The position numbers were made by a program, and so were the translations under genes. The notes beneath the pieces were generated by a model. The model worked only from the letters and a program-made list of their open reading frames with translations, was not told the DNA's origin and did not search any database. 64,000 bases of DNA from a virus: IMG/VR virus record IMGVR_UViG_2909435987_000002. One strand, written 5' to 3'. Shown one piece after another: positions 33,362 through 61,494 of this stretch (the first letter of the stretch is position 1; each line of letters starts with the position of its first letter).

Positions 33362-34453
33362 TTATTTAGCAAACATTTCAACTACTGATTCTACAGCTAA
33401 ACTAGCCCCTAATGTCAACTTTACTAAAGGTTCTGGATCACCATAACGTGTTAGTTTACTAACAGGTAATTGATTACCAAATCTTAAAGTAAAAGGAGCA
33501 GGACTCATATATATAGGATCAATACGACCTAAAGAAGCTGCATCTTTCTTAGTAAGATATCTAGTAACACCATAGTTCTTTACTACTTGACCAATAGGCA
33601 TATTAGAAGCATATTCATACTCAAATACAGCTACATGAGTTTTACCTGAAGCAGTAAACGTACTAGCAGTTGTTAAATCAACAACTGTACCATTAATATC
33701 TGCAATAGCATCTGATTGGCTAGCATAATTCTTAGCAGATTTTAATAGATACTTTCTGCTAGGCATAAAAGCTGTGTTAGCCGCAGCTATAGCATATACT
33801 CTTCTCTGTGCTGGAATTAGACCAACTTTAGACTTGAAATCTAAAAACTGATCTCTAGACATTACTGAGAGAGCATTTCTCTTAGGAGAGTTATCTACTG
33901 TAGCTACTTCTGCTAGAACTAGATCAAATCCAATAGGTGCAAAAGGTTGTAGTTGATATAATGGATCCCACTGTCTACGTTCTGCTTCATAATAAGCATT
34001 GAAGATTGTGATTTCATCAGTAGTAGCAGTGCCGTTATAAACTTTTTTAGATAAAGCTTGTAAGCCACCTTTAGCTAATACACCTTGTTCTACATCACTA
34101 GGAAAGAAAGTATGAGCAATAGCTTCAGCAGTTTGTGGATCAGCAGCTACATAATAAGAATTACCCGCAGCTTCAGCAGCAGAACGACTAGAAGGTTCTA
34201 GATATTTAGGTACTGCACCAATAATAAAAGATTGACCTTGAGCAACTAAAGAAGATAAAGTACTAAAGTCAATTGATTTACCTGTGAAACTATAATCAGT
34301 ACCTTCTACTTCAAGCAAACCCCCATCAAATTCAATAAGATCATCAGTAATAGTATATGTTGGAGATTTCTTTAGGTAGCATTGAGCGTAAGTTTTATCT
34401 CCACCTTGAGTTCTAGCTCCGGGAAATATTTGGTTTAAGAAAAGTAAACCCAT
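33362..34453 (-). CDS. Abundant virion protein (auxiliary/decoration capsid or major tail protein candidate)
   Basis: Directly downstream of the MCP gene and shares its GC-richer codon usage. Confidence 0.45.
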   Translation of the reverse strand: MGLLFLNQIFPGARTQGGDKTYAQCYLKKSPTYTITDDLIEFDGGLLEVEGTDYSFTGKSIDFSTLSSLVAQGQSFIIGAVPKYLEPSSRSAAEAAGNSYYVAADPQTAEAIAHTFFPSDVEQGVLAKGGLQALSKKVYNGTATTDEITIFNAYYEAERRQWDPLYQLQPFAPIGFDLVLAEVATVDNSPKRNALSVMSRDQFLDFKSKVGLIPAQRRVYAIAAANTAFMPSRKYLLKSAKNYASQSDAIADINGTVVDLTTASTFTASGKTHVAVFEYEYASNMPIGQVVKNYGVTRYLTKKDAASLGRIDPIYMSPAPFTLRFGNQLPVSKLTRYGDPEPLVKLTLGASLAVESVVEMFAK

Positions 34454-35908: not shown

Positions 35909-37453
35909 TTATTGACCCAGCTTTAATTTAGTAGCTTTGTCTTTATTAGATTGAATAATCTCTTTCATGCTGGCTTCTAAACCAGTTGGAGAGCTGATAG
36001 ATTGACCAAACTGTTCATAAGTAACAGGCTCAGTTTTAATAGCATCCATTACTAATGAAGTGATTACTTCCAATACTGATTTAGATTCTTCGTTACCCGC
36101 AGCAGTAGATAGTTTAATAACATTACTATTACTATCTAAAGCAGATTCAATTTGACTAAATCTTTCAATAAAAGAAGCTGGCATTCCTTGATCTACTAGC
36201 TTTGAGTATCTAGCAGTTCTTTCTGCTTTAGCTACAGAAGTAGAGAATGCTTGAGAGATTTCTTGCTGCTTATTTAAAGCATTACTTAAATCAGCTATCT
36301 TACTATTAAGACCTTCAATAAGTTGACTATTCTGAGCCTTCATAGCTTCTAGTTGCTTTTCGTAAGCAATAGAAAGATTATCTGTAACCTGTTTAATAAG
36401 AGCTGCTACATCTAACTTAGCTTGGGGCTCTTCAACTACAGATGTCGAAGAAGTAGTAACAATAGCAGGCTGAATAGGTTGTTCTAAAATTGGAGTTGGA
36501 ATAGTTGCTGTAGGAGCTATTCCTGTAACTGTATTACCTGTAGCTTCTAGTACAGCATTAACAGCTTCAGTAACAGTTTCTACATTATTGTTTTGTTGTG
36601 ACATTTCAATATCTGAACTAGTTAAATTAGTATCATCTATTGATAGTTTAATCATGAATACAGATCTGCTTTGTGGGCAGTCATTCTGCTTACTATTATC
36701 TATTTCTTCAGAAGCATTAACAGATAATGCTTGAACTTTTAAATCCCTAAAAGGAATAAAAGGAGAATTAGTTAAAGCAACTCTAGTTAATACAACTCCT
36801 AAATTCTCACCAGTTTCTTTACTTTTAAAATTCCTTATAAGTTCAGGAGATACATATTCATACTCTCCATTAAGAACTAATTTATAAGTATCTTCAGGAC
36901 AAGAATATAAACCATATAGAATATTATCTTCTATAGATAACTTTTGTAGTTCACCTTTCTTAAGTTCAGCGTCTACCGCTTCATATTCAGGATCAGTAGA
37001 GTGACCATAAGTAATATAAGAAGTAAAACCTAAAGCGTCATTCTCAAAGTTAGATAGTACTGAATTGAATTCATAGTCATCAAACTTAACTTGTCCATAT
37101 TTCTCATGGTAGAAATTTCCTTTCTTAGCAATAGGTATCTTTAACATACCTTGTGAAAAGTAAAGGCGGCTTTCTAATATATCTTCATATACTTCTTCTT
37201 TAGGAGAAATATCTTCTATCTCCTTCTTAATCCATAATCTACAATAACCTTGAGGACTGATAGAACCTTCTACTACTGAACAAGCATTCTCGTAGTAATA
37301 GCTACATGTTTCACATTTAATACTTCTATTAGATAGATAGAGAGGAGACTCATTAGTATATAGAGCTTCTTCTTGAGAGAAAGAACCAGTCTGAGATATT
37401 ACCTGATCTATGCTATCTTCAAGTAATTCTTCTTTAGATATATCTGTATCCAT
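35909..37453 (-). CDS. Scaffold-like protein (possibly a protease/scaffold fusion)
   Basis: The C-terminal half is a Q/A/L-rich coiled coil (KQLEAMKAQNSQLIEGLNSKIADLSNALNKQQ). The N-terminal half is Cys-containing and globular. It lies between the portal and the MCP. Confidence 0.4.
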   Translation of the reverse strand: MDTDISKEELLEDSIDQVISQTGSFSQEEALYTNESPLYLSNRSIKCETCSYYYENACSVVEGSISPQGYCRLWIKKEIEDISPKEEVYEDILESRLYFSQGMLKIPIAKKGNFYHEKYGQVKFDDYEFNSVLSNFENDALGFTSYITYGHSTDPEYEAVDAELKKGELQKLSIEDNILYGLYSCPEDTYKLVLNGEYEYVSPELIRNFKSKETGENLGVVLTRVALTNSPFIPFRDLKVQALSVNASEEIDNSKQNDCPQSRSVFMIKLSIDDTNLTSSDIEMSQQNNNVETVTEAVNAVLEATGNTVTGIAPTATIPTPILEQPIQPAIVTTSSTSVVEEPQAKLDVAALIKQVTDNLSIAYEKQLEAMKAQNSQLIEGLNSKIADLSNALNKQQEISQAFSTSVAKAERTARYSKLVDQGMPASFIERFSQIESALDSNSNVIKLSTAAGNEESKSVLEVITSLVMDAIKTEPVTYEQFGQSISSPTGLEASMKEIIQSNKDKATKLKLGQ

Positions 37454-37543
37454 ATATTGCTTTTGATATTATCAATCTAAATAATATCTATATATGCAAT
37501 AGTAAGTGGTAGGAAGGATTGCCTATTTAGTTTATGAGTAGAT

Positions 37544-37587
37544 TATCTAATATCTATATTGAAATATTTCAATATAGATATTAGATA
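37544..37587. promoter_or_regulatory. 44-bp perfect palindrome overlapping the RBS and start codon of the Dps-like gene
   Basis: Perfect 22+22 inverted repeat centred at 37565/37566 (...tctatattgaaata|tatttcaatataga...). Verified base by base. Confidence 0.6.
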
Positions 37588-38066
37588 TGAATCCAACAAT
37601 AATAGATATTCCACAAGGTATAAGAAGTGATGCAGTTGATAAATTAAACTATTTACTAGCTCTTATGGCTGATCTTTATTCTCAATTTAAAACTGCTCAT
37701 TGGAATGTAAAAGGTATGAACTTTATATCTTTACATAAGATGTTTGATGACTTAGCAGGGGAAGTGGATGGGCATGTAGATAGTATTGCTGAAAGATTAG
37801 TAGCTTTAGGGGGAATAGCTTATGGAACTATAAAGATGGCAGCTTCTAGTAGTACTCTAAGTGAGTTATCTATCGAACAGTTTAATGGAGCTAGTTACTT
37901 AAAAAGTCTAGCTATTAATATAGTTAAGATTACTTCTCTATTAAGAGAATATAGCGGCGCATTAGATTCTAGTGGAGATATAACAACAGCTAACTTTTTG
38001 CTAGAATTAGCATATTCGTTAGACAAAATGTTGTATTTTATAGAGTCTCACTTATCTAATGCTTAA
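37587..38066 (+). CDS. Dps-like ferritin-superfamily protein
   Basis: AHWNVKGMNFISLHKMFDDLAGEVDGHVDSIAERLVALGG matches the Dps signature. Confidence 0.75.
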   Translation: MNPTIIDIPQGIRSDAVDKLNYLLALMADLYSQFKTAHWNVKGMNFISLHKMFDDLAGEVDGHVDSIAERLVALGGIAYGTIKMAASSSTLSELSIEQFNGASYLKSLAINIVKITSLLREYSGALDSSGDITTANFLLELAYSLDKMLYFIESHLSNA

Positions 38067-38994
38067 ACTAATTAATTCTATTCTTTCTGAGAATCCTACT
38101 GCTGATATAACCTTAATCAACAAACTACAGCTTCTAGTAGATAAATATAATCTTAAATGGGTTCCTTCTAAATTAGGTAAGGGGGCCTATTTTATTATGC
38201 ACACCCTTAGTACTAGTAAAGAACTGAGTTATGAAAACTATAGAAGGAATTGGAGTAAATCTAATAAACTTCAAGGTAAAGGAATGTTATTGAAAGGAGA
38301 TAATCTCAAATCATTTAAAAAGATATATAAAGATATTCATAAGGTTAATTTAGGTGCTAATTTAAATAGCTTATGGATAGGTGATTGGTTACATGCTTAT
38401 GATTATTTAACTAAGATAGTAAATAATGCGGCTGGTAAAACTTCTAAAGTTCAAAAGCCTAAACTTAAATTAGTTAATGGAGGAAAGACTAGTTGGGCTA
38501 GTGAATTTGATATTCAAGAAGAGTTAGTAAAACTAGCTTCTTACTCTAATCTTAATTTAAGAAGAGAATATGTAATTGATAATCTTCTAAAGAATAAGAC
38601 TAACAATCTAGCTAGAACAAGAAGATATGATTTAGTTCATATATCAGATAAGAGAGTAGTTATATATGAATTAAAGAAAGGACTTCTAACAATAGAAGAT
38701 GTATCTACTTCTTTAGGGGAGAAAGGATATATGAATCTAGCTAGGAGCCACTTTGGTAAAGAAGTAAAGTTAGTATTTCTTAGTCCTATAGGGATACAAG
38801 AAGAAGCTAAGAGATTAATAGATGAGATGTCAAATATAGGATTCTTAAAAGTAAATGATTTTGCTAAAGCTATATATTTATCTATTGAAGAAGAGATGAA
38901 GAAAAAAGATTCTTTATGGTTTGCTAGAGAGAGAATCTTACCTCAATTTCCTAGATTACTAAAAGAGTTAATAGTTAAAAGAGAGGCGGCATGA
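38059..38994 (+). CDS. Hypothetical protein (311 aa), possible PD-(D/E)xK-like C-terminal region
   Basis: Translationally coupled to the Dps-like gene (ATGCTTAA overlap). Weak D...ELK motif (HISDKRVVIYELKKG). Confidence 0.45.
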   Translation: MLKLINSILSENPTADITLINKLQLLVDKYNLKWVPSKLGKGAYFIMHTLSTSKELSYENYRRNWSKSNKLQGKGMLLKGDNLKSFKKIYKDIHKVNLGANLNSLWIGDWLHAYDYLTKIVNNAAGKTSKVQKPKLKLVNGGKTSWASEFDIQEELVKLASYSNLNLRREYVIDNLLKNKTNNLARTRRYDLVHISDKRVVIYELKKGLLTIEDVSTSLGEKGYMNLARSHFGKEVKLVFLSPIGIQEEAKRLIDEMSNIGFLKVNDFAKAIYLSIEEEMKKKDSLWFARERILPQFPRLLKELIVKREAA

Positions 38995-39410
38995 AATCAT
39001 TAGAGAGAATATTATCTACTAAAGCTCTACTAGAAATATTAGAAAAGAATGTTAGTGAGCCAGAGATAGATAAAGAAGAAGGTAAATTAAGATTTAAGAT
39101 AGCTAAGTTAACGAGAGATAGATCAGTATCTATTGATCTAGATAAGATAGCTTGGGGCCCATTAGAAACTGTATATGAATCTAATGTAGCGGCTCTAATG
39201 ATAATGAGAGGCTACTTAATATTTCCTATAGAAGGAGGATGGATAGTAGTTAATCCTGAAGGAGAAGAATATCAAATAGATGGAAATAGTTGTACTTGTA
39301 AAGGTAATAGTTATAATCCATCTAGTAGATGTAGTCATTTAATATTAAGAGATTGGATGCTCAATTATAGAGCTAGAGGAAATGAATATAGATTAGATAA
39401 AGGATATTAA
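38991..39410 (+). CDS. SWIM zinc-finger protein
   Basis: CTCKGNSYNPSSRCSH fits CxCx(n)CxH. ATGA overlap with the upstream gene. Confidence 0.5.
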   Translation: MKSLERILSTKALLEILEKNVSEPEIDKEEGKLRFKIAKLTRDRSVSIDLDKIAWGPLETVYESNVAALMIMRGYLIFPIEGGWIVVNPEGEEYQIDGNSCTCKGNSYNPSSRCSHLILRDWMLNYRARGNEYRLDKGY

Positions 39411-39444
39411 AATAGGCGGCTAGATTAGCCGCCTATTTTATTTA
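39410..39444. terminator. Bidirectional terminator between the convergent SWIM and portal genes
   Basis: AGGCGGC-tagatta-GCCGCCT flanked by A/T runs. Confidence 0.65.
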
Positions 39445-41015: not shown

Positions 41016-41088
41016 TTAGATAAATAAATATATAAATTAATAAGTACTTATCTAACTTTACATAGATAAGTACTTATTAAGTAAGTAG

Positions 41089-42023: not shown

Positions 42024-45000
42024 TTGAGTAAATATAATTATCGTTCTCTTTTCAGAAGAAGAAGAAGTAGAAGCTATAAATCCAATCCTCTACTTAATAC
42101 AGCTAGATTTAATCTATTGTTTAGAAGTAGTACTCCCTATGAGTATCAATCTCAAGAAGATTTATATAGGGGATTTCTTAATAATGAATATATGGAGATG
42201 GCTGAAAGAAGAGCCGAAGAATCTAATGCTGAAGCTGAATTAGCTGTTAAAAGAGCAGTATTAGATAGAGCAATAGATATATTTGATGCTTCTTTAGAAG
42301 AAGATGGATTAGATTCTAATGCTGTATATAAAAGATTATTTGGAGCTTTTGAGACTAGAAATCTATTTGATGATAATGACTTAGATAGAGAATTCTCTAG
42401 AGATTTACTTCATGACTTAAGTAAGTTTATGAGAGGAGAAGAAGTAGATAATAAAGAACTTATTCCTCAATATAACTATATAAGAGAAAGAGAAAGGGAA
42501 TTATTAGATAGAGAATTATTGGCGGCTCCTAATGCTAGTAAAGCCATCAATGATGATATAGAAAGATTTAAAGAAAGGGCTCATGGTACTAGTTCTAGTA
42601 TTAATACTATTACTGGAGGAGGATTAAATAGAAGTAAAAGTTTACTAGAAGATATTAACTTTGTTAATAGACCAGGTATCTTACCAGCAGTAGCTATGTT
42701 AGCTGAAGCTAATAAAGAATTCTTTATAGATATCTTCCAACTACAGAATAGAACAATACAAGACTACTACATAACTAATATTATCAATAGAGCTACTGCT
42801 TATAGAGAATCAATAGCTAGAGGAGAAAACCCAGATAAGTTTAGTTTTAATATAAGGATGGCATTCAATTTAGAAGCGCCTCATGATGTTGGTTCTATGG
42901 CAGGCATTCTAGGATCTAACTTGGGCTTCTATAACAAACTAATGAGATTAAAAGATTTATATAAAGATGATATAGATATTAATGTTCTATTCGCTGATAA
43001 GAAAAGCCACCCTAAATTTATAGTAACTGATAATTACGCCATATTAGGATCTCAAAACCTTACTGCTCCTGTTGGTAAATCTGTTTATCAAGCAGGATCT
43101 AACTATGAAATTATTAAAGTTCTTCATTATAAACAAGAAGGATATACCCCAGATGAATTAATAGAAGAGATTAGAGCTGGTAGAAAGAGTGCTAAAGATA
43201 TAGATGCTCAATCTCTTTTATATCTGCAAGCTAGACAAGTAATGAAAAGAACGTTTAATAAACCCAATGAAAAGAATCTTTCTAGTGAAGTGAGTAATAT
43301 AGGGGGCCCTGTAGAAAACTTTAATTTTCTTAAAGGAACTCTTGAGTATATAGATGGGGCTGGTAGAAGAAATGATGCCCGTATGTCTATGATTCTAAAC
43401 CAAGTATTCTTACTTCAATATGAAAAAGATTTAATGTTTGGTAATAAAGGTCTTATTAAAGGTGAAATGGGGCCTCATTCTCAACAATTATTTGATAGTA
43501 GAAATCAATATATTAATCAGAAAGCTCAAGTCTTTCAGAAGATGCAGAGACAATTCTTAGAGATGGTTATTGAAGGAAGAGGAGTAGCCTATGTAGATAT
43601 CAGAACTTATAGAGATAAAGTTCAAGATCCAGTAATGGATAAGTTAAGTGAAGTTGGATTATTAAAAAACTATAATTATGATCTAACAAAGTTAGTAGGT
43701 GACTTAGCAGTAGGTAATACTACTAAAGAAAGAATTAACTCTTTAACGGCTGAACTAAAGAAGTATAGCTATAAAGGACAGGCATTAGATGAATCTATGG
43801 CTGTTCAAATTATGGCTATGGCTAGTGGAAATATACAGTCTGTTAATGTAGCAATGCAGCATGGTAAAGAGTGGTTAGCAGAAGAAAGAGATAAGAGTGG
43901 TAAATGGGTTCCTATTGCTGCTAAGAGTGGATCATCTAACCCTAATATGTACTCTGGAGCTTTAGCAAATAATGAGTTTGAAAAAGATTTAACTAACTGG
44001 GAAATAGATTTTATTACTGCTAACGATAAGGTTAGAAAGCTGGCTAATGTACAGAGAGATAGAGGTACTTTTGGATTTGGTTTAAGTAGAAACCAAGAAG
44101 AAGAAATGATGAGAGATCAGGCTAATGCTTTTCATGAGAAGGTCAATGATATAAGAGTTAGAAGAATAGGTCAGATTGAATATAGTGATGTTTATCAAGG
44201 GGGAGAATGGGAAAAGCAAGTAGATAGAAGTAGATTGATGGAGCTACATGATAGGTTAAAGAATCTAACTAGTGATCTAGGTGTAGATAATATTATGTCT
44301 GTTGGAATTAATAGAGATAATCATAGTAGAGCTATATCTTTATCTGTTAGGTTAGATCCCTCTAGATTAGGAGTTAGTGGATTAGGGCCTATTAGTTATA
44401 AATTCACTACGTTATTAAATGGAGCAGGTAGAGATGAAGGTTATGTAATGGAACTTAATAAATCTAAGATGATTGGTAGAACAGAAGTAGTTAATACATC
44501 AGGAGTCAATCTAGTTACTGGATTTGAAAGGGATGGTAAACAATTAATAGTTCAACATGGACAAAGAGTAGGATTATCTCCTATAGAAAGTACTATTGCA
44601 TTACTTAGTTCAGTAGCGATAGAGGTAGGTAATCAAGCACTTATTAATAAACCTAGAGAAGAGTTTGATAAATATAGAGGTAATTATGATGCTATAGGAA
44701 GTATGGTAGTTAATTACCTATTAAAGATGAGTGGGGTTAATAGAAAAGATATATCTTCTCTATTAGATATGGATGGAGGAGATTTGTTATATGGGATTAT
44801 TACTAAGTTTGAGAATAGATTTACGGGTAGAGATGGCGGCGTATTAGATAAGGTTAGGAGTTTAAGTAATATTTCTTTAAACGATAGTAATAGAAATGTT
44901 CAGATAAGAAATCTAATTAATACGATGAAGTTAATGGCTCTTAATAGTGGTACTAGCAGAGCTGGAGTTCTAGTAGGAGGAAGTAATTTTGATAGCAGTA

Positions 45001-48000
45001 ATTCTATTATTAGTCAATTCATAGCTCTTATGGGTATGGATGAGTTTGCTGATTTAAGATATGACGTTATTAACGCTAACTCTAATAGCTTTTATAGAAA
45101 AGGAATTGAGCAGGGTATAAAAGAAGTTAGTAATAGTAAGTTTGAGGATAGATATTTATATGGACAAATAAATACTTATAGTGGATCTCAAGGAAGTAGA
45201 AAAGTTCCTATATATGGTTTTGATAGAGGAAGAGAAAGAGATGTTCGTATTATTAATAGTCAAGGAGGGCTAGCTAGTTTAGCTTTACTTAATTCTCCAT
45301 ATGCTTTTGGGCCTTCTAGTGATTTAGGTAGAGGAGACTTAGCTTTCTTCTCTGTAGCTGAAGGAGGTGGATCTAGAGAAATAGGTAATATTGGAGATGA
45401 TCTAACTAATGAAGCTTTACTTCCTTTCCATAGACATGCTGGTGTGGGTCATTTAACTCTTATGGATACTATAGAAGATAGTGGAGTTGGTGCCATATTG
45501 AAAGTTAGTGAAGCGGCTGATTATGCTAAAACTATTCAACATTTAGGTGGTGGTTTTGCTAGTAAGACTGGAGAGGATTATGTTGAAAGATTGAGAGAGA
45601 TGAGTGGAGAGGATGATACTTTCCTTATGTTTTACTTTGACAGAATTGGTAAGGCTTCTCAAATTAACCAAAGATTAAAGAATGTTGGTGGTACTAGACC
45701 TCTTATGGATCTAACTATGGAATACCAACAGCTTATAGATACTATGAAGGCTGTTAAGTATAAGAATAAATTTAGTAAGGGTTCAGTTAATGTGGCTACC
45801 AGTGATCAATTAAGAGCAGCTTATCTAGATGATCTAAGAACAGGATTAAAAAGTATTGGTAAGAGTAGTGATTTAATAACTAGCGATTATGCAATAGGAG
45901 CAGAGATAGGACAACAGTTAGCTCCAGTATTAAGCGCTCAATTAAGTAAGGTAGTAGAAGATATTAGATCACAAGTAATGAGTGAATTTAATTTCTCTAA
46001 AGAAGAAACTTATGGTGGTATAGGTGCAGAAATATTTAGGGCTAAGTTATTAAATGTTAATACCCATGCTTCTATGGATAGAGGAATGATGGCTTCTTCT
46101 AGAAGACATGGTTCTCCTATTATGCTTATGCAATTAAGCGGTGCTTATTCAGATTGGTATTATGCTAATCCAGAATATGGTGGTGAAGATGGCATGAGAC
46201 AGACTTTTATAGATAGAAGTGTTAAGACTGTTCAAGGAAGTAAGTTAAGAGCAACTATTTCTTCTAGTGATCTTATAGATGCATTAGGTATAGATAGCTG
46301 GAATATAATGAATAATGTAATGAGAGAAAGTGGTGAAATTATAGCTTTTGATAATGAGGATAGAAAAACTTGGGTATATAGATATGATGAGAGTAAGAAA
46401 GAATACATAAAAAAGAATGTAGTTGATAGTAGGAAACAGTTTCCCCTTATCAAAGATACTATTGAGAAAGTAGTAGAGAAACCCAGCTTTAGTTATGTTA
46501 GTGCTACTAGTAGTACTGCTTCTTTCTTCGAGGAGAATGCTAGAGAGGTATTAAAAGATATTAGGATATTAAGTGCCAACTTAGATAGTAATGAGATTCT
46601 AGTAGAAGTTAATTATATGAGAACTCTAGTACAAGGAGGAGGTAGAAGAACTGAATCTAGTGCTGGTGGTTTATTTAAAGGTGTTCCAATATTCACTAAT
46701 ATGAATGGAGTATTAGATGAATGGATAGGACAAAGGGGTGGCTCGTTAACTGGAGCTAATATAAGAAGGGAACAGATACAAGGTATAGCTAACCCTAAGA
46801 ACTTTAAGAGTTATTTCTTCTCTCATGGTGCAGAGATATTAACACAAGAAAGAGATAGTAAAGGTAATAGTAAATATTTAAAAGCATTACTTAATACAGA
46901 TACTAGAGTATTAGCCGCCTCATTATTGATGAGTATGGGTAATAGATTTGGTGGTGGAGGTAGTGATGAGGCTATGGTTGCATTAGCTGAATCTGCTAGA
47001 AGAGGAGATTTAGGAGAGTACTTTAAAAATAGATATCAATATATAGCACTTAATTCTGGTAGTACTAATGCCTTAGATATAGCTAAGGCGTTTCTTAAGG
47101 GTATTAATGCAGATCCTACTGGTGAGTCACTAAAAGTATTAAGTGGTAAAGATTCATTAACTGGTGACTTAGGTGATCTAAACGTTAAGTCTATTGGGTT
47201 TATTGAATATGATGATATAGCTAGATCTCTTAAAGGAGAAAGAGGGGCGGCTAATAATCTTAGAGATAAGTTGAAGTTATTATTATCAGATCCTACTAAA
47301 GGAATTATTAACCAAGAATATCTAGCAATGGATAAGAGTGGTAGAGGTAGAGAGTTGAGTATTATAGCTGGGGGAATAGATTTAATGGCGCAGCTTATTA
47401 CTTCTAAGGCTATTACTATTCCTGTAGCAGATGTATTAGGAGATGAGAATACTTTTAGAGAACTAGCTGCTATTGATGGTCAAGCTTATAGAAAGATTAT
47501 CGAGTCTGATAGGAAAGATGAATATGCTCAACTATTAAATTACTTAGCTAATACAAGTCATATAGTAGGTCTATTAGCTCCTACTGCTGCTTCTCAATTG
47601 AAAGTACCTGTTAGTAGTAAAAGTAAAGCCTATTTAGAAGCTCAATATCTAGTACCAGAGGCTTTCAGCGCTCAAGCTAATGTATTTAAGGATAGTGGTA
47701 ATGTAGCTAAGTTAAGAGATCTAGTATCTACCCTATTAGGTGCAATGATGGGCGGCACTGGAGATGAGTTTGTAGGGGCTACTAATAAGCTACAAGTATT
47801 TGATTTAATGGATGTCTATTCTAGAAGTCCATTATTCAAGAGTAAGATGCTAGGTTTCTATCATAGTGCGATAGGTAGTACAGGTCAGTTTGATTCTTTA
47901 AGAAGAAGATATGAACTATTTGGTACTATTCAAGTGATGATGGGATCTACTAGTTTTAATTACACAGAACAAGATAAACAAATGATTGCAAATCTTATTA

Positions 48001-51000
48001 AGAGTAGTAAGGTTGGCAGTATGGAAGATGTTAAAGGATTGTTAGGAGTTCTAGAAAAGAATCAATCAAGAGGTCAGTTTGAAACTACTCTTAGTTTAGG
48101 TATAGAAGGAGTAATGAAAGAGTTTGAAGCTGTATCTACTGAATATAAATTACTTAGTGATAAAGCAGAAGGTATTAGTCACGCTTATTCAGTGATAGAA
48201 GGGATGAGTAAGAGTGGAATGCAGAGAATGGGGTTCTCTTTCCCTCTACTAGAAATAGAAGGAGGTAAGGTCAGATTTAATAAAGCTGTTAAAGTATATA
48301 GTTTTGCCCCTTCTGCTGAAGATACTCGTATTGTAGGAGAACAATATGGGGATCAGATGAGTGAAGAAATAAAAATAATTATGGATGTTTGGGAAGGTTT
48401 AGCAGTAGGGACTCATGTTAATAAATTACTAGACAAGATAGCTGTCATGGGAGATGAGGGAGAAGTAGAAGTGGGATTGGAAGCAGCTAGAGATATTATT
48501 AGGTGGCAAGATAGCGCTATGAATATATTTCCTCTATTACATGGAGGAATAGCTGGTACTAGATTGCAACAGGTAATGGGTAATAAGACTCCTATGGAGG
48601 GAGCTAACTTTACTGCTGCTGGTTCTCTATTAGTTCCTAATGGAGTGTTGGTAGGAATGGATGCTATTCAGAATAAGTTTGGTGGTAAAGCAGCAGAAGA
48701 TAGAAAGAAAGCTTTAGTTATTCTAGAAGATAGAATAGGTAAGAATACTAATAGAATAATTAAAACTAAAAGACAGTTAGCTGAGTTAGAGGCGGCTAAT
48801 CCTTCTATTCCTTGGAAAGGTAAAGACTTTAGGGAGTATATGAAGAATGCTACTAAAGGTGAATTAGAAGCTGCTAGTAGAAGAAATGATTTACTTAAAG
48901 ATTTAGGTTATTATAACGACCATAGAAGATTACTTAGCGCTCAACATGTAATGTTGCATGATGGATTAGGGCCTAAAGGAACAAAACAAATAACAAGATT
49001 AATAGAAGAGTCTACTAAGATTAGAGAAGCTCTTAGTGCAGCTACTAATAATGATGATAAGGAAAGGATACTACTTCATATAGAAGATAGATTAGGTCAC
49101 TATCAAGATTTGAAAGTGGAGAGTTCTATTAGAGAAGGAGATTACTTTGCTAGATTAGCTGCTATTGCAGAGATGCAGATTCTTCAAGTGGAAGCTTTAG
49201 GTAGATTAGGTAGGAATAGTGGTAAGTACGGTGATACTACTATTGAAAAGATGAAAGCTAATACATTGGGTTTAATTAATGCTCCTTCAGTAATAGAAGG
49301 TCTTAGGTTAGGTAGTGGTAGAAAAGGTATGTACATGCCTAAGATGAGAGCTGAATCTCTAGCAGGTGAGATTAGAAAGGGGACTATGAATGTAATAGAT
49401 AGATTTAATGATGATAAGAGAAGTTTGAATGCTCAAGTTATACAAGAGAATATAGATATTGTTAGAGAACAGATTAAGCAGTACCAAACAGATTTAGAAA
49501 CTAAACATGGAGAGTTCTTCTTAAAGAGTCAGCTTAATCAAAAGATACAAGATATGTATTCTAGATTAGATGGATTCCAATCTAGATTAAGCAAGAGTAG
49601 TAGTCCAGAAGAGTTAGCAGATATTAAACATTTATTAAATAGTGATTTATCTAGAAACTTTGTAGAGCTAGATCTAGTTAGGATGAATTCATTTAGAGCT
49701 TCACCTATAGGTAATGAATTTATTACTTATAGTAAATATGATGTATTCTCACTTGAAGATTTAAATAATAGACTTCAAGAGAAAGGTTTTACTATGAGTT
49801 TTAATATAGATAGAAATAAGACTTTAGGTTTATTTCATCCTATAGGATTCTATACTAGTCAAGGCGGTGACTTTGATGGAGATAGTGCGGCGGCTATATT
49901 TGAACATAGTAGAAGATTAGATCTACAAAGAGAACATAACTCTGTAATTATTAGAAATATAGAAGAAAGTATTATTGATGTAACAAATAAGATTAGTAAC
50001 GAAACTGATCCTACTAAATTAGCAGATTTAAATAAAGCTTTAGATAAGTTAGAAAGTAGAAAAAATAAATATATTAATGAGAATAGAGACTTAAGTGTTA
50101 CTCTTCAACAGGTAGAGAAGACTAATAGTATTACTGAATTTAAAGATAAAGCTGCTAGTTGGGTAAGTAATTATCTAAAGATAGATAAGGCTTTTCTAGA
50201 AGGAAAAGATACTAATGTAATATTTAGCTTCTTAGAACATGCCAGAGATTTATTTGATGGTATGAAGAATATAGTTAATAAGCCTATGTTAGAAGGTCTT
50301 ATGGCTATAGGAAGAGATGAGAAAGTAGTTCAAGATAAAGGTGCATTTGAAAGATTAATTATAAGTCATAGTACAGGTAGTGATAATAATTTATATGAAC
50401 TATTAAAAACTGATAATGGATTAAGAGAAGATATTAGACAGAATTTAGTAAAAGCACATCAGAATAAAGATGGGTTTGATAAAGGTTTAACAGAGTATTT
50501 AGGTTCGTTGACTCAAGCTCAAGTAGGCAGTGATGCAATTCAAAAGTATCAGTCTAGAGGGTTAATGGGTGCGGGCATGAATACAGAGAATATGGAGATG
50601 ATGAATAAAGCATTAGCTCAAGCAGGTAGTGTGATATTAGGTAAGACTTATAACACTATGGCTGGGTTATTATATGCTGAATCTCCTATGTTAGCTATGG
50701 CTCATGCATTAGAGAATGATGATCCTGAAGGTACTCTAGGTAATCTAGTAAAGAGAAATATAGGAGATCAGGGATATCAGGATTTAATGCAGAGTGCTAA
50801 ATATGCTAGAGGATACTCCCAAGAAATGGGGGGATTTCTACAAACTGTTAATCAGATTATGAGAGATTCTATTAAACCTAAAGATGCTGCTGGATTCTTC
50901 AGAGAATTAAATGATAAGTTAGATGCCTATAGAAAAGCTAATGAGAAGGATAAAGATAGAATTATACAAGAGTTAGTAGAAGACTTCGGGCCTGGATCTG

Positions 51001-53135
51001 GATTAAAGGCTTTAGTTCAATTAGATAATTTAGTAAGACATATAGAAGGACTAAGAAGAGAAGAGAATGATACTAATGAGAAATTAGCTAATCAAGAGTT
51101 ATTAAGAAAGTTTGGTATTAATGAAGAAAGTCCAGAGTATAAAGAATACTTAAGAAGATTGGGGTATGTAAATCCTAATGGAACAATAAATGCCAGTAGT
51201 TCAGAGGGATTAGAAAAACATGGTAATAAGAATGTAGTACTAGCAGCTTACAAAACTAAGATGGATTTAGTAAGTGTAACTAGTGCATATGCTTTTGAGA
51301 AAGGAAGAGGAAAAGAATTATTATATAAGGGCGGTAGATGGAACAGTCCAGATAGTACTGGTAATACTTTATATAGTATCTTTAAGGAAGATTTAGAATC
51401 AGGATTACCTCAATTTAAAGCAATAGATGAAGCCATTACACCATTAATAGATATAGCTGGTAGACATCTAGCTAACCCTAGTCTAATACCTATTAATACT
51501 CTTAATAGAGACGAAGCTGAATATGTTGATTATATTAAGTCTATGATTCCTGCTCAACATGTTAGTAAGTATGAAGAGATGGATGAGATAGATAAGAAAT
51601 ATCATGCTCATGTTTTCTTAAAGACTAAAGGACAAACAAGCCACTTTGCTGGAGACTTTGGAGAAAAGCTAATTAGCTTTGCTAAGTTCAATGCTAATAG
51701 AGCTGAAGCTTATGGTGGTAACTTTATGGCAGGCGGTAAGAATTTATTATTAAGTAAAGATAGTAGTTTCTTTAATCATCTAATGGCAGCAACTTCAGGG
51801 AAAATAGATAATGAGACTCTAGCATTCTTTATGAATGCTAACGTAGCTACTTTTAGAAGACATACTGGTAAGAGTAATGCTTCAATAGAAGATGTTCTTA
51901 GTGCAATGAATAGTATGGGTAATCTTAATACTAGTGAAGAGAGTGCTAGGATGGCTGAGTTATTAGCCCCAGCATTAAAAGATAAAGAAGTAGCTGAGTT
52001 AATGATGGCTAGAGTTAGACAAACTCAATATGGAATGATGTCTCAAACTGTATTAGAAATGCAAAGAGGCGCAAGTACTGATAATTTATCTGAGATTAAT
52101 GAAGATGATTTAGTTAAACATGTACAGAAATTAGGCGCTAGTAAAGAAACAGCTAGAGAATTTGTACAAAGACATTTAAGTTATTTATTAACTAAGTCTA
52201 TAGCTAATCCAGATAGTAATGGCAGTGAACTAAGTCAAGCAGAAGCAGATTTAAGACAGAAGATGGGGAGAGGATATATAGCACCTAATGTAAGAAATCA
52301 AGGTAGTAATATAAACTTAGGTCAGCATTTAAAACAGACTACTTCAGGTCTAATTAATAAGAATTCTGATATAGGTTTAGAAATATTTGCTTTACCTTTA
52401 TTAGCAATAGCAGGTCAAGCTATTGCCAGTGGGGAAGTTAATCCAGAAATATTCCAACAAGCAATAGGAAATAGTATTACAGCTCTTGCCTATACAAGAC
52501 CTTATCAATTCTCAGGGAAGACTGATTTAGGAAAAGGTATTACTGCTGCTTCTAGTATTGCTGCTGGTACGGCATTTAAAGCTAGGATGGCTATTCAGAA
52601 TCAGGAAGATGGAGATATTGGTAAAGCTCTTACAGGTTTGGCAGTTAGAGAAATAGCTATGAATGCGACTATAGGACTCGTATCAGAAAAGTTTACTAAT
52701 GTGGCTGCTAGAGCATTAGGAAGAGAGAAACATACATTAGATATCAACACATATGAAGGGATAAGGGGTGTGGCTGCTACTGCTTTAGGCGGTATAGCTA
52801 GTGCTGTATTAGGTATGTTAGTAGGTGAAGGGGCTAAACAAATAGTTAATCCTAGTAATCCTAGTGTATTAGAACAGACTCTAAAAAGTGCAAAAGAATA
52901 TCTAAATAGAGTAAAACAAGTATCTAATGAAGAATTACTAGACGATAACTCTAATTTAGAAAGTAGTAATGGAATAGTAGAATATATAACTTATAGAAGT
53001 TATAGTGGTGATCCTGAGATTAATACTGCTACCCAACAAGGTCTATATGCAGAAGATTTAGATAACGAAGGGGTTAGTGAAACATTTCAAACTGATAATA
53101 CCTATGATGGATATCAAACTGAATTAAGTCCTTAA
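42024..53135 (+). CDS. Giant single-polypeptide RNA polymerase-like protein (3703 aa) with a beta-prime-type DPBB aspartate triad
   Basis: Uninterrupted 11.1-kb ORF with a TTG start and an Arg-rich N-terminus (RSLFRRRRSRSYKS). The motif FYTSQGGDFDGDSAAAIFEH (DNA 49869-49883) resembles the universal NADFDGD metal-binding motif. No T7-like HDS motif is present. Confidence 0.55.
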   Translation: MSKYNYRSLFRRRRSRSYKSNPLLNTARFNLLFRSSTPYEYQSQEDLYRGFLNNEYMEMAERRAEESNAEAELAVKRAVLDRAIDIFDASLEEDGLDSNAVYKRLFGAFETRNLFDDNDLDREFSRDLLHDLSKFMRGEEVDNKELIPQYNYIRERERELLDRELLAAPNASKAINDDIERFKERAHGTSSSINTITGGGLNRSKSLLEDINFVNRPGILPAVAMLAEANKEFFIDIFQLQNRTIQDYYITNIINRATAYRESIARGENPDKFSFNIRMAFNLEAPHDVGSMAGILGSNLGFYNKLMRLKDLYKDDIDINVLFADKKSHPKFIVTDNYAILGSQNLTAPVGKSVYQAGSNYEIIKVLHYKQEGYTPDELIEEIRAGRKSAKDIDAQSLLYLQARQVMKRTFNKPNEKNLSSEVSNIGGPVENFNFLKGTLEYIDGAGRRNDARMSMILNQVFLLQYEKDLMFGNKGLIKGEMGPHSQQLFDSRNQYINQKAQVFQKMQRQFLEMVIEGRGVAYVDIRTYRDKVQDPVMDKLSEVGLLKNYNYDLTKLVGDLAVGNTTKERINSLTAELKKYSYKGQALDESMAVQIMAMASGNIQSVNVAMQHGKEWLAEERDKSGKWVPIAAKSGSSNPNMYSGALANNEFEKDLTNWEIDFITANDKVRKLANVQRDRGTFGFGLSRNQEEEMMRDQANAFHEKVNDIRVRRIGQIEYSDVYQGGEWEKQVDRSRLMELHDRLKNLTSDLGVDNIMSVGINRDNHSRAISLSVRLDPSRLGVSGLGPISYKFTTLLNGAGRDEGYVMELNKSKMIGRTEVVNTSGVNLVTGFERDGKQLIVQHGQRVGLSPIESTIALLSSVAIEVGNQALINKPREEFDKYRGNYDAIGSMVVNYLLKMSGVNRKDISSLLDMDGGDLLYGIITKFENRFTGRDGGVLDKVRSLSNISLNDSNRNVQIRNLINTMKLMALNSGTSRAGVLVGGSNFDSSNSIISQFIALMGMDEFADLRYDVINANSNSFYRKGIEQGIKEVSNSKFEDRYLYGQINTYSGSQGSRKVPIYGFDRGRERDVRIINSQGGLASLALLNSPYAFGPSSDLGRGDLAFFSVAEGGGSREIGNIGDDLTNEALLPFHRHAGVGHLTLMDTIEDSGVGAILKVSEAADYAKTIQHLGGGFASKTGEDYVERLREMSGEDDTFLMFYFDRIGKASQINQRLKNVGGTRPLMDLTMEYQQLIDTMKAVKYKNKFSKGSVNVATSDQLRAAYLDDLRTGLKSIGKSSDLITSDYAIGAEIGQQLAPVLSAQLSKVVEDIRSQVMSEFNFSKEETYGGIGAEIFRAKLLNVNTHASMDRGMMASSRRHGSPIMLMQLSGAYSDWYYANPEYGGEDGMRQTFIDRSVKTVQGSKLRATISSSDLIDALGIDSWNIMNNVMRESGEIIAFDNEDRKTWVYRYDESKKEYIKKNVVDSRKQFPLIKDTIEKVVEKPSFSYVSATSSTASFFEENAREVLKDIRILSANLDSNEILVEVNYMRTLVQGGGRRTESSAGGLFKGVPIFTNMNGVLDEWIGQRGGSLTGANIRREQIQGIANPKNFKSYFFSHGAEILTQERDSKGNSKYLKALLNTDTRVLAASLLMSMGNRFGGGGSDEAMVALAESARRGDLGEYFKNRYQYIALNSGSTNALDIAKAFLKGINADPTGESLKVLSGKDSLTGDLGDLNVKSIGFIEYDDIARSLKGERGAANNLRDKLKLLLSDPTKGIINQEYLAMDKSGRGRELSIIAGGIDLMAQLITSKAITIPVADVLGDENTFRELAAIDGQAYRKIIESDRKDEYAQLLNYLANTSHIVGLLAPTAASQLKVPVSSKSKAYLEAQYLVPEAFSAQANVFKDSGNVAKLRDLVSTLLGAMMGGTGDEFVGATNKLQVFDLMDVYSRSPLFKSKMLGFYHSAIGSTGQFDSLRRRYELFGTIQVMMGSTSFNYTEQDKQMIANLIKSSKVGSMEDVKGLLGVLEKNQSRGQFETTLSLGIEGVMKEFEAVSTEYKLLSDKAEGISHAYSVIEGMSKSGMQRMGFSFPLLEIEGGKVRFNKAVKVYSFAPSAEDTRIVGEQYGDQMSEEIKIIMDVWEGLAVGTHVNKLLDKIAVMGDEGEVEVGLEAARDIIRWQDSAMNIFPLLHGGIAGTRLQQVMGNKTPMEGANFTAAGSLLVPNGVLVGMDAIQNKFGGKAAEDRKKALVILEDRIGKNTNRIIKTKRQLAELEAANPSIPWKGKDFREYMKNATKGELEAASRRNDLLKDLGYYNDHRRLLSAQHVMLHDGLGPKGTKQITRLIEESTKIREALSAATNNDDKERILLHIEDRLGHYQDLKVESSIREGDYFARLAAIAEMQILQVEALGRLGRNSGKYGDTTIEKMKANTLGLINAPSVIEGLRLGSGRKGMYMPKMRAESLAGEIRKGTMNVIDRFNDDKRSLNAQVIQENIDIVREQIKQYQTDLETKHGEFFLKSQLNQKIQDMYSRLDGFQSRLSKSSSPEELADIKHLLNSDLSRNFVELDLVRMNSFRASPIGNEFITYSKYDVFSLEDLNNRLQEKGFTMSFNIDRNKTLGLFHPIGFYTSQGGDFDGDSAAAIFEHSRRLDLQREHNSVIIRNIEESIIDVTNKISNETDPTKLADLNKALDKLESRKNKYINENRDLSVTLQQVEKTNSITEFKDKAASWVSNYLKIDKAFLEGKDTNVIFSFLEHARDLFDGMKNIVNKPMLEGLMAIGRDEKVVQDKGAFERLIISHSTGSDNNLYELLKTDNGLREDIRQNLVKAHQNKDGFDKGLTEYLGSLTQAQVGSDAIQKYQSRGLMGAGMNTENMEMMNKALAQAGSVILGKTYNTMAGLLYAESPMLAMAHALENDDPEGTLGNLVKRNIGDQGYQDLMQSAKYARGYSQEMGGFLQTVNQIMRDSIKPKDAAGFFRELNDKLDAYRKANEKDKDRIIQELVEDFGPGSGLKALVQLDNLVRHIEGLRREENDTNEKLANQELLRKFGINEESPEYKEYLRRLGYVNPNGTINASSSEGLEKHGNKNVVLAAYKTKMDLVSVTSAYAFEKGRGKELLYKGGRWNSPDSTGNTLYSIFKEDLESGLPQFKAIDEAITPLIDIAGRHLANPSLIPINTLNRDEAEYVDYIKSMIPAQHVSKYEEMDEIDKKYHAHVFLKTKGQTSHFAGDFGEKLISFAKFNANRAEAYGGNFMAGGKNLLLSKDSSFFNHLMAATSGKIDNETLAFFMNANVATFRRHTGKSNASIEDVLSAMNSMGNLNTSEESARMAELLAPALKDKEVAELMMARVRQTQYGMMSQTVLEMQRGASTDNLSEINEDDLVKHVQKLGASKETAREFVQRHLSYLLTKSIANPDSNGSELSQAEADLRQKMGRGYIAPNVRNQGSNINLGQHLKQTTSGLINKNSDIGLEIFALPLLAIAGQAIASGEVNPEIFQQAIGNSITALAYTRPYQFSGKTDLGKGITAASSIAAGTAFKARMAIQNQEDGDIGKALTGLAVREIAMNATIGLVSEKFTNVAARALGREKHTLDINTYEGIRGVAATALGGIASAVLGMLVGEGAKQIVNPSNPSVLEQTLKSAKEYLNRVKQVSNEELLDDNSNLESSNGIVEYITYRSYSGDPEINTATQQGLYAEDLDNEGVSETFQTDNTYDGYQTELSP

Positions 53136-57607: not shown

Positions 57608-57637
57608 GGGCGGCTAGTTATGCCGCCTGTTTTATTA
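57608..57637 (+). terminator. GC-hairpin terminator (GGGCGGC-tagttat-GCCGCC + TGTTTTATT)
   Basis: Perfect 6-7 bp GC stem followed by a T-tract. Confidence 0.65.
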
Positions 57638-58769: not shown

Positions 58770-58797
58770 GGGCGGCATAACTAGCCGCCTATTTTAG
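58770..58797 (+). terminator. GC-hairpin terminator (GGGCGGC-ataacta-GCCGCC + TATTTTAG)
   Basis: Same stem as the 57608 terminator. Its loop is the exact reverse complement of that one. Confidence 0.65.
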
Positions 58798-58820: not shown

Positions 58821-58973
58821 ATGATTGATCCAGATAGACCTAGTGATCCAATAGTAATAATAGATGATCCTAACTATTGGACTCTACCTAACTTACTAGG
58901 AAACTTATTAGCAGCAGCTCAAGAAGATCATCCAGAACAATTTCCTAGAGATGAAGATAGTCCAGAGTATTAA
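58821..58973 (+). CDS. Small acidic ORF (50 aa), not in the ORF track
   Basis: ATG preceded by TGAGGT. Encodes MIDPDRPSDPIVIIDDPNYWTLPNLLGNLLAAAQEDHPEQFPRDEDSPEY. Confidence 0.3.
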   Translation: MIDPDRPSDPIVIIDDPNYWTLPNLLGNLLAAAQEDHPEQFPRDEDSPEY

Positions 58974-58983
58974 GGTAAGTTAA

Positions 58984-59013
58984 TATATTTCTATTGAATT
59001 CAATAGAAATATA
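58984..59013. promoter_or_regulatory. 30-bp perfect palindrome overlapping the RBS and start of gene 59013
   Basis: ATATATTTCTATTGA|ATTCAATAGAAATATAT, centred on GAATTC. Related half-site to the 37544 palindrome (TCTAT(AT)TGAA). Confidence 0.6.
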
Positions 59014-59390
59014 TGTACTGTGGTCTTATGATTCTCTCTTCTCAAGAGATTAAGTGCCCTTTTATAGATTTAACTTTCTATAGAAAGGGACTTATTAATG
59101 AAGGATTCAAAGGAAAGTTTGAAGTAGTACAGAGAATTAGAAAAGGTAAATTTCATTTCACTGGCTGCTTCTGTGAAGAATTATTTGAATACTTTGATTC
59201 TAGTGAACACTGGGGACTAATAGAAATGCAAGATGAGGTAGAAGAAATAACAGCTATATATCTTAGAACTAATAGATTTATGACGGGGGTAGAAGTTAGT
59301 TCTACTAGAGAACATAATATCTACTTTCTAAAAGAAGAAAGAATCAACAGTGACTCTATTGTTAATGAAGTAATAATTGTGAGGGATTAA
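59013..59390 (+). CDS. Hypothetical protein (125 aa)
   Basis: ORF whose start codon overlaps a 30-bp perfect palindrome. Confidence 0.45.
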   Translation: MYCGLMILSSQEIKCPFIDLTFYRKGLINEGFKGKFEVVQRIRKGKFHFTGCFCEELFEYFDSSEHWGLIEMQDEVEEITAIYLRTNRFMTGVEVSSTREHNIYFLKEERINSDSIVNEVIIVRD

Positions 59391-60978: not shown

Positions 60979-61176
60979 ATGAATAAGTGGTTTAGGATTT
61001 TATTTATCAATAGAAAGAATAGAAATCTAGATTGCTATAGTGGATTATATAGTGAGCCTAGTGATGCTCTTATTGATGCCGCCCTCTATAGAGAGAATCT
61101 AGAGGGTGAAGTAGATTGTTATTTAGTAGAAGAAGATCTAGAAATAGAAGGAGAAATTAATGTCTATCAAAATTAG
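60979..61176 (+). CDS. Small acidic protein, paralog family (65 aa)
   Basis: YSEPSDALIDAALYRENLEGEVDCYLVEEDLEIEGE. Confidence 0.5.
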   Translation: MNKWFRILFINRKNRNLDCYSGLYSEPSDALIDAALYRENLEGEVDCYLVEEDLEIEGEINVYQN

Positions 61177-61494
61177 AAAGTCTGTATTTGAAACTAATTC
61201 CTTAATATTGGGGCGTTAACTTAGTGATAAGTTAAATGAATTGGATAAATTGCTGGAAGGCCTTCATATATGTACGGTTAATCAGCAGCCAAGATAGTCT
61301 TAGGTTAAAAGAGACTATAGGGTTCAGAGCATAGAGGTTGAGCCTAACAATAATACCTCCACGAACATCCAACATCTTTATAAGATGATGATATATGCCG
61401 AACTTACAAGATGATAAATTGTAAGAAGTAAAGATAAAAAGCTTTACGATAACAGAACGCAAGTAGCCATAGTCTAGCTATTAATACTACAGAC

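Follow-up and report, generated by a model that had tools for sequence, protein, structure and literature searches.

Two perfect AT-rich palindromes at or near gene starts in a predicted Ma-LMM01-like jumbo cyanophage

Results

Two loopless palindromes at predicted gene starts

Two perfect, AT-rich palindromes without a spacer, 44 and 32 bp long, stand far beyond chance in the window, the 64,000-nucleotide stretch of viral DNA analysed here. Our best reading, which we hold tentatively and with less than even confidence, is that they are young inverted duplications of leader sequence acting as start-occluding mRNA hairpins. We infer that the full palindromes are transcribed, that translation is controlled and that the arms arose by inverted duplication. 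The sequence oddity itself is real and statistically solid, and a cis-regulatory role of a known kind is plausible. As found, the palindromes are lineage-specific and singular, and they bear on a conserved, unexplained phage Dps/ferritin gene located beside the head module. The features of the first site are as follows.

37544..37587, plus strand: palindrome 1, 44 bp, perfect, AT-rich, no spacer; 22-nt arms TATCTAATATCTATATTGAAAT and ATTTCAATATAGATATTAGATA
37587..38066, plus strand: Dps/ferritin-like gene, 159 aa (Pfam Ferritin, E 1.1e-21; PHROG 3636)
37587-39410, plus strand: three-gene unit, Dps first, ending at the GC-rich terminator 39408-39440
37482..37493, plus strand: third exact copy of TAATATCTATAT, within the 133-bp divergent spacer of palindrome 1
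37534..37584, plus strand: possible 16-codon leader ORF (MSRLSNIYIEIFQYRY, then stop), open across all of palindrome 1, with its end 2 nt short of the Dps ATG
37540..37545, plus strand: TAGATT at the left edge of palindrome 1, a -10-like hexamer of the TANNNT type and a putative promoter element only

The preliminary description had placed a 44-bp perfect inverted repeat with its end on the A of the ATG of a Dps-like gene, and this is exactly what the sequence holds: the last base of palindrome 1 is the A of ATG 37587, the start of the Dps/ferritin gene. This start agrees with that of an identical NCBI protein, named Dps, from a Calothrix sp. FACHB-1219 assembly. The palindrome is followed by TGAATCC; the stem covers positions -43..+1 of the Dps ATG, and no SD is present. 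The nearest genes upstream of the 133-bp divergent spacer all lie on the minus strand and, with no plus-strand gene upstream of it, no same-strand transcription is expected to enter site 1. The TAATATCTATAT copy within the spacer has the same orientation as the left arm, and 28 nt separate it from the ATG of the 514-aa head-module gene, which runs leftward; just two more exact copies exist across the 64 kb, both in coding DNA. The leader ORF lacks an SD and could be accidental, as we estimate that chance alone leaves a frame open over this length in ~27% of cases. The TAGATT hexamer is part of GAGTAGATTATC (37537-37548), which resembles GTAGGCTAT found upstream of Dps in five relatives.

A distant relative of Ma-LMM01

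The window corresponds to ~11.3-75.3 kb of contig JACJQF010000002.1 (359,493 bp), and has a GC content of ~31%. Among its genes are those of a Mu-type portal and a capsid protein, along with a 3703-aa ORF. The head-module protein encoded at 35909-37453 (514 aa) matches Microcystis phage Ma-LMM01, MaMV relatives and a Microcoleus phage at ~27-42% identity, and the gene order is that of the Ma-LMM01 group: giant ORF, portal, short divergent unit, 514-aa protein and major head protein. Based on these head-protein matches and on the same gene order, we assign the element to the Ma-LMM01-like cyanophage group as a predicted jumbo member and distant relative. No nucleotide match was obtained among GenBank phages, and no close relative in IMG/VR (single-protein and exact-pattern searches) or in GTDB genomes. 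The best protein relative is 40% identical, and the gene at site 2 is an orphan. As the collections searched hold no close relative, covariation analysis was ruled out.

Alignment of the 514-aa protein retrieved 46 related loci, and exact protein look-up a further three. In six relatives (L007/L008, L009, L010, L012/L029, L017 and L032), Dps lies divergent from the gene of the 514-aa protein. More generally, Ma-LMM01-like phages that differ widely in GC content conserve a Dps/ferritin gene divergent from, and adjacent to, the head-module gene. None of the six relatives has a palindrome at the Dps ATG, and their Dps leaders are not unusually structured (folding z -1.6 to +0.7). The TANNNT-type word GTAGGCT(A/T)T is present upstream of Dps in L009, L010, L012, L017 and L032, in spacers that are otherwise unalignable. 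In two of these relatives, L010 and L012, it is located just 5-7 nt before the ATG, a position that may reflect very short leaders. GTAGGCT was not enriched beyond the Dps upstream regions of the relatives. A strong hairpin lies directly 3' of Dps in L007 and L009.

Both palindromes exceed chance

Palindromes 1 and 2 are the two longest loopless palindromes of the window, where the next have 10-nt arms. When the window was simulated 200 times with a second-order Markov model, the longest arm measured 7-13 nt and never reached 16, compared with the observed 22 and 16 nt. The earlier judgement that palindromes of this length are unlikely to arise by chance is therefore upheld. Adding 10 kb on each side of the window extended the reading to 81.7 kb of the contig, or 23% of the genome, over which the two remain the longest and no further long loopless palindrome was found. 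One shorter loopless case lies ~490 bp past the window end.

L057 10914-10934 (equivalent to window positions 64492-64512): third loopless, AT-only palindrome, TAATATCTAAGTTAGATATTA

This third palindrome ends 1 nt before the ATG of a GH5/cellulase gene, the first of a polysaccharide-synthesis cluster. A 13-mer, TATCTAATATCTA, is common to the left arm of palindrome 1 and to the third palindrome taken with its 5' flank, for 0.15 copies expected.

Within 82 kb of this phage, seven perfect hairpins have their end between -80 and +9 relative to an ATG: at -1, 0 and +1 for the three that are loopless and AT-only, and at -10 to -22 for the looped ones. The end-at-ATG placement of the loopless palindromes has a binomial P of ~0.001, a post hoc value that counts ATG 59013 as a start. 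Among 281 starts, relatives included, a single extra case was found, in L010, 4 nt before the sheath gene.

The symmetry of palindromes 1 and 2 is without a mismatch over 38 arm pairs and continues through the centre. The joint chance that both four-base centres are self-complementary is ~0.007 (our estimate), which points to an origin or a constraint at the DNA level. However, long, nearly loopless perfect palindromes exist in the relatives downstream of Dps or of the capsid gene, as terminators, so that in this group central symmetry alone does not argue against a role at the RNA level. Arms that are fully complementary over 22 and 16 consecutive positions bear the mark of arm-to-arm pairing or of recent inverted duplication, not of protein read-out. 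An insertion of the MITE type with target-site duplication was rejected at site 1, where no flanking direct repeats exist beyond those that the symmetry itself creates.

The ordinary terminators of this genome form another class. Near-identical GGCGGC-loop-GCCGCC stems followed by T-runs are found at 39408-39440, 57609-57627 and 58770-58790, and also at L057 ~11975 and 17844 (window-equivalent ~65553 and 71422). These recurring GC-rich stem-loops recall the repeated promoter/stem-loop cassettes of T4-type phages. An intrinsic terminator was rejected at both palindromes, where the stems are AT-only and loopless, no U-tract is present and a terminator scan reports none. A looped AT-rich hairpin lies elsewhere in the window.

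41037-41080, minus strand: AT-rich hairpin of 44 nt with 18-nt perfect arms and an 8-nt loop, located between a 63-aa ORF, whose stop is 8 nt away, and the portal ATG, 21 nt away

A T-rich run follows this hairpin on the minus strand and its layout resembles that of site 2; it is probably an AU-rich terminator or attenuator.

The second palindrome and its gene start

58983..59014, plus strand: palindrome 2, 32 bp, perfect, AT-rich, no loop; 16-nt arms ATATATTTCTATTGAA and TTCAATAGAAATATAT
58770..58790, plus strand: GC-rich intrinsic terminator GGGCGGCATAACTAGCCGCCT then ATTTTAG, preceding the small ORF 58821-58973
59013..59390, plus strand: ORF 3' of palindrome 2, 125 aa from ATG 59013 or 120 aa from ATG 59028

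At the second site, the preliminary description had reported a 30-bp perfect repeat ending on the A of ATG 59013. The palindrome is real and is one base longer on each side, at 32 bp, so that it covers the AT of this ATG and not just its A; it is followed by GTACTGTGG. The claim that it is positioned over a start codon stands in part: palindrome 2 does overlap ATG 59013, but a better-supported start, ATG 59028, lies 13 nt beyond its end. The protein deposited at NCBI for this ORF has 120 aa and starts at ATG 59028, and the 16 nt 5' of this codon pair with the anti-SD (16S 3' end) at -7.5 kcal/mol. No SD-like element was detected by anti-SD pairing 5' of ATG 59013. SD-like words (GAGT, GAGG, GGAG and GGGA) are enriched 5' of gene starts in this genome. 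Given the deposited start and its better SD match, it is doubtful that site 2 coincides with a start codon in use, the second gene probably starting elsewhere than at ATG 59013. The ORF is without homologues or domains in Pfam, PHROG and NCBI searches.

Palindrome 2 begins 9 nt past the stop of a 50-aa ORF (58821-58973) and occupies 30 of the 39 nt of the spacer. It more likely fills the gap between this stop, 9 nt on its 5' side, and a start 13 nt on its 3' side. Site 2 could receive read-through transcription from ORF 58821-58973, and all three reading frames through the palindrome are closed.

The shared half-site is at chance level

A half-site, TCTAT(AT)TGAA, had been proposed to be common to the two palindromes. 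It is literally present in both, but the exact common word is just the 7-mer TATTGAA, which is at chance level: a common word of at least 7 nt arose in 18% of controls made by shuffling the arms and in 9% of those drawn at random from spacers. TATTGAA lies 2 nt further from the dyad in site 1 than in site 2, so that the half-site spacing differs by 4 bp; 4 bp separate the TGAA/TTCA cores of site 1, whereas those of site 2 adjoin (0 bp). One dimer could therefore not fit both sites. With up to one mismatch allowed, TCTATWTTGAA was not enriched in the window (12 matches for 12.8 expected), and TTTCTATTGAA was in excess (22 for 5.4 expected). Among the 18 extra TTTCTATTGAA copies, 17 are in coding DNA and half are in one sense frame, TCT-ATT-GAA, for which reason the excess looks like a codon effect.

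Over the 23% of the genome that was read, the half-site scan that had been suggested genome-wide returned no copies beyond expectation; the exception within these 82 kb is the partial third site sharing the 13-mer, a weak loopless palindrome outside the window. Pfam and PHROG searches found no HTH, RHH or zinc-finger DNA-binding domain in the 19 neighbouring ORFs, many of which are orphans. Known phage operators measure 14-24 bp, are usually imperfect and occur several per genome, with one half-site at a fixed spacing. The operators of P22 Mnt and Arc and of 434 and lambda, as well as the conserved inverted repeats of phiC31, resemble the present sites by their dyad symmetry near a gene start and by the promoter-sized spacer. 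By contrast, each sequence here occurs once, is far longer and has no mismatch, and the half-sites match no better than by chance and differ in spacing. Moreover, 44 perfectly symmetric positions far exceed what a dimer constrains. With chance-level similarity, a 4-bp difference in spacing, no excess copies in the 82 kb read and no regulator domain found in the neighbouring ORFs, the suggestion that the palindromes are operators for one dimeric regulator is not supported. A host FurA box at Dps was likewise rejected: the best manual alignment to the Anabaena FurA consensus, AAATAAATTCTCAATAAAT (PMC4005646), gave ~10/19 identities (~53%), which does not exceed the AT-rich background.

Folding depends on the transcription start

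Folded alone as RNA, the hairpin of site 1 has a 20-bp stem and reaches -23.2 kcal/mol (z -8.6), and that of site 2 has a 14-bp stem and reaches -13.7 kcal/mol (z -6.5); as DNA hairpins, the values are -15.1 and -9.1 kcal/mol. When positions -45..+5 of 79 predicted gene starts were folded (median -4.2 kcal/mol), the two sites ranked 1st and 4th, against a background whose first percentile is -14.8 kcal/mol. Ranks 2 and 3 are GC-rich terminators that stop short of the ATG, and, counting ATG 59013 as a start, sites 1 and 2 are the only two of the 79 whose stem reaches the ATG. RNAs beginning at the dyad fold at only -2.0 and -3.7 kcal/mol, with z ~0, and are hence unstructured. Since such dyad-started RNAs are unstructured, the relevance of the stems depends wholly on where transcription starts. 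No Rfam family matches at either palindrome. The mRNA hairpin sequestering the start region, one of the two options that had been put forward, is therefore energetically sound and an extreme outlier among the 79 starts, but at site 2 the stem probably misses the true start and its SD.

A giant protein with a conserved GDFDGD motif

42024-53135, plus strand: 3703-aa ORF of the Ma-LMM01 gp080 family (phrog_31006, 'unknown function'), with a single GDFDGD at residue 2616

No Pfam or PDB match was obtained for the 3703-aa ORF. An exhaustive HMMER search retrieved 36 homologues of 600-4400 aa, 33 of which carry G-D-[FYWL]-D-G-D, and one further homologue has A-D-F-D-G-D. An invariant R..P.G is found ~58 residues upstream of the motif and (H/N)P 10 residues upstream. 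The motif resembles the beta-prime catalytic loop of two-barrel RNA polymerases, which suggests that the protein may contain a two-barrel RNAP domain like that of crAss-like gp66 or of the P23-45 tape-measure RNAP, and that it may be a virion RNAP. The other comparisons gave little: hhalign of the motif segment to an E. coli beta-prime sequence entered by hand gave E 0.004 and a probability of just 8.6%, a profile search of the DFDGD region against PDB returned coiled-coil noise only, and the AlphaFold model is unreliable at the motif. In the literature, we found no paper linking the motif of the giant protein to a two-barrel RNAP for Ma-LMM01. The published view is that Ma-LMM01 relies wholly on the host sigma-70 RNA polymerase (PMC5780444). 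The GD(F/Y/W)DGD motif of the gp080 family conflicts with this view of host-only transcription (PMC5780444), and is a more consequential lead than the palindromes.

Proposed start-occluding hairpins and rival readings

In the reading that we tentatively favour, the final 16-22 nt of the leader before a cistron would have been duplicated in inverted orientation to give each palindrome. A transcript containing both arms would form a long, perfect AU-rich stem, of 20 bp and -23 kcal/mol before Dps and of 14 bp and -14 kcal/mol at site 2, and this stem would bury the ribosome landing region up to the AUG. Relief could come by three routes: an mRNA beginning at or after the dyad would be unstructured; a ribosome could read through the stem, as the 16-codon leader ORF would allow by coupling at site 1; or the stem could be cleaved or unwound. 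Coupling to a leader peptide was rejected as a mechanism common to both sites, an ORF crossing the stem at site 1 only. Studied precedents exist. In T4 gene e (lysozyme), I-TevI, Aeh1 mobE and the fold-back inhibition of IS10, the 3' strand of a stem serves as the initiation region for translation; an RNA that also carries the 5' strand cannot be translated, and one begun inside the stem is translated (PMC3014915). The energies computed here, -23 or -14 kcal/mol for the full RNA versus -2 to -4 without the 5' arm, recall the T4 e, I-TevI and IS10 cases. The T4 e-type stems are, however, short, imperfect, looped and conserved in related phages, with a late promoter in the 5' strand and upstream read-through, whereas those described here are perfect, loopless, 32-44 bp long, absent from relatives and without an identifiable promoter, and site 1 has no same-strand upstream gene. 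As in T4 genes 25 and 38, the stem base is directly followed by a start codon and a purine-rich word precedes the stem, here by 4-6 nt; the split-RBS stems of those genes are short, unlike the present ones. A split RBS bridged by the hairpin was rejected, as the anti-SD pairing of GAGT (37536-37539) and AAGGT (58972-58976), at -3.5 and -4.0 kcal/mol, is at background level, with 21-31% of random windows pairing at least as strongly. Should translation be gated by the stems, a distant relative of Ma-LMM01 would use a T4-style coupling of a gene's translation to its own promoter, which would be useful for reading the expression programme of an unstudied group of jumbo cyanophages.

Several observations argue for start-occluding hairpins: the palindromes far exceed chance and are outliers in folding energy among gene starts, arm-to-arm pairing demands perfect complementarity over 22 and 16 positions and a dimeric protein does not impose it, the ordinary terminators are of another class (GC-rich stem, 3-8-nt loop and T-run), the three loopless AT-only palindromes end within a nucleotide of an ATG, and the leader ORF of site 1 crosses the stem to stop 2 nt before Dps. 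Other points weigh against this reading. Site 1 lies in a divergent spacer, where silencing of read-through is not obviously applicable; at site 2 the SD-like element of ATG 59028 is free of the stem; six relatives keep Dps with neither palindrome nor structured leader; the four central bases are self-complementary although an RNA hairpin needs none such; and a permanent -23 kcal/mol block before a conserved gene requires a relief mechanism. A rival reading is that the palindromes are young and selectively neutral inverted duplications, produced by fold-back or template-switch errors of phage DNA replication and tolerated in short spacers without a selected role, which we regard as somewhat unlikely. 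A recent duplication gives precisely a symmetry that is perfect through the centre and free of mismatch over all arm pairs, and it would explain why the orthologous Dps starts of the six relatives have no equivalent and why the two sequences are unrelated beyond chance and do not recur elsewhere. At site 2, the palindrome fills so much of the spacer (30 of 39 nt) that proximity to the ATG is nearly forced. Random duplication nevertheless fixes no such boundary as the -1, 0 and +1 ends (P ~0.001, post hoc), and a -23 kcal/mol stem on a conserved gene start should be counter-selected unless it is used or never transcribed. Long perfect palindromes are, in addition, normally unstable in replicating DNA, which also counts against neutrality.

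No full RNA hairpin would form if the palindromes were DNA elements of the promoter region, either an operator for a symmetric oligomeric repressor, with the transcription start at its centre, or a symmetric pair of back-to-back promoters, from which the transcript would begin at the dyad or, if leaderless, at the A of the ATG. This is unlikely in our view, despite a TANNNT hexamer in each left arm (TATATT at 37555-37560 and 58984-58989) that would place the start within ~2 nt of the dyad. A boundary at the ATG would be natural if the ATG were the transcript 5' end, TAGGCT at 5-7 nt before the Dps ATG in L010 and L012 is compatible with very short or no leaders, and site 1 occupies a divergent spacer with the third TAATATCTATAT copy near the leftward gene. 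But roughly every second arm this AT-rich should contain a TANNNT by chance (our estimate), a sigma-70 scan gave nothing above shuffles, TAGATA and WTAGAWAT were not enriched 5' of genes or in spacers, and k-mer enrichment upstream of the 79 starts yielded no specific word. The chance-level half-site similarity with its differing spacing counts against a shared operator as well, 44 bp of perfect symmetry exceed any ordinary operator, and no regulator gene was identified nearby. A role in RNA processing or stability, as an RNase III target or a terminal protective stem and, at site 2, as an intercistronic hairpin guarding the 3' end of the message of the 50-aa ORF, appears quite unlikely. RNase III acts on double-stranded RNA such as the T7 R sites and the lambda N leader, and its minimal substrate is ~20 bp, about two helical turns. 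The stem of site 1 is perfect over 20 bp, and that of site 2 has just 14 bp. The layout of site 2 (9 nt after a stop and 13 nt before the SD-bearing ATG 59028) is the same as that of the hairpin at 41037-41080, and a transcript from ~37552, 7 nt after TAGATT, would carry a flush 5' hairpin of -11.8 kcal/mol. On the other side, neither palindrome has a U-tract 3' of it and neither is thus an intrinsic terminator, nothing is transcribed into site 1 from upstream, which cannot therefore be a 3'-end element, and Rfam gave no match. The least probable reading, a very unlikely one drawn by analogy with N4, is that the palindromes are structure-borne (cruciform or hairpin) promoters or entry sites for the giant DFDGD-motif protein, which would act as an injected two-barrel virion RNAP with transcripts from the palindrome edge at the ATG. 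In its favour, no sequences extrude cruciforms more readily than loopless AT-rich palindromes, and the conserved motif (33/36 homologues) is like the two-barrel catalytic loop. N4 likewise has inverted repeats directly 5' of a few genes and encodes a giant virion-type protein (~3500 aa). N4 virion-RNAP promoters, however, have 5-7-bp GC-containing stems, a 3-nt loop and conserved bases, whereas the stems here are of 14-20 bp and AT-only, with self-complementary centres; N4 gp50 is a T7-like polymerase, as opposed to a giant protein with a two-barrel-type DFDGD motif of putative function. The polymerase assignment comes from the motif only, with no Pfam or PDB match and a poor AlphaFold model, the dyad-to-ATG distance varies (22, 15 and 11 nt), and neither Dps nor the polysaccharide cluster, the genes served, is obviously early. 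Also in favour of this reading, the crAss-like virion RNAP works preferentially on single-stranded templates and has no known promoter motif (bioRxiv 10.1101/2020.03.07.982082). Were such promoters to operate here, they would be a functional analogue of the N4 hairpin promoters in a Ma-LMM01-like jumbo cyanophage.

Other features of the contig

At L057 10935-20165, the same 31%-GC contig encodes GH5, a Wzy-like polymerase, a flippase, a pyruvyl transferase, several GT2 and a sugar transferase. Such a polysaccharide cluster is unusual phage cargo, raising the question of whether the whole 359-kb contig is viral. ARAGORN reported a 95-nt tRNA-Ser(tga) at 33798-33892 (plus strand) inside the minus-strand ORF 33362-34453, which is probably a false positive. 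Finally, Rfam identified a group I intron (RF00028; 61.8 bits, E 2.9e-13) at 61193-61425 on the plus strand, between ORFs 60979-61176 and 61495-62220, which may be two exons of one gene.
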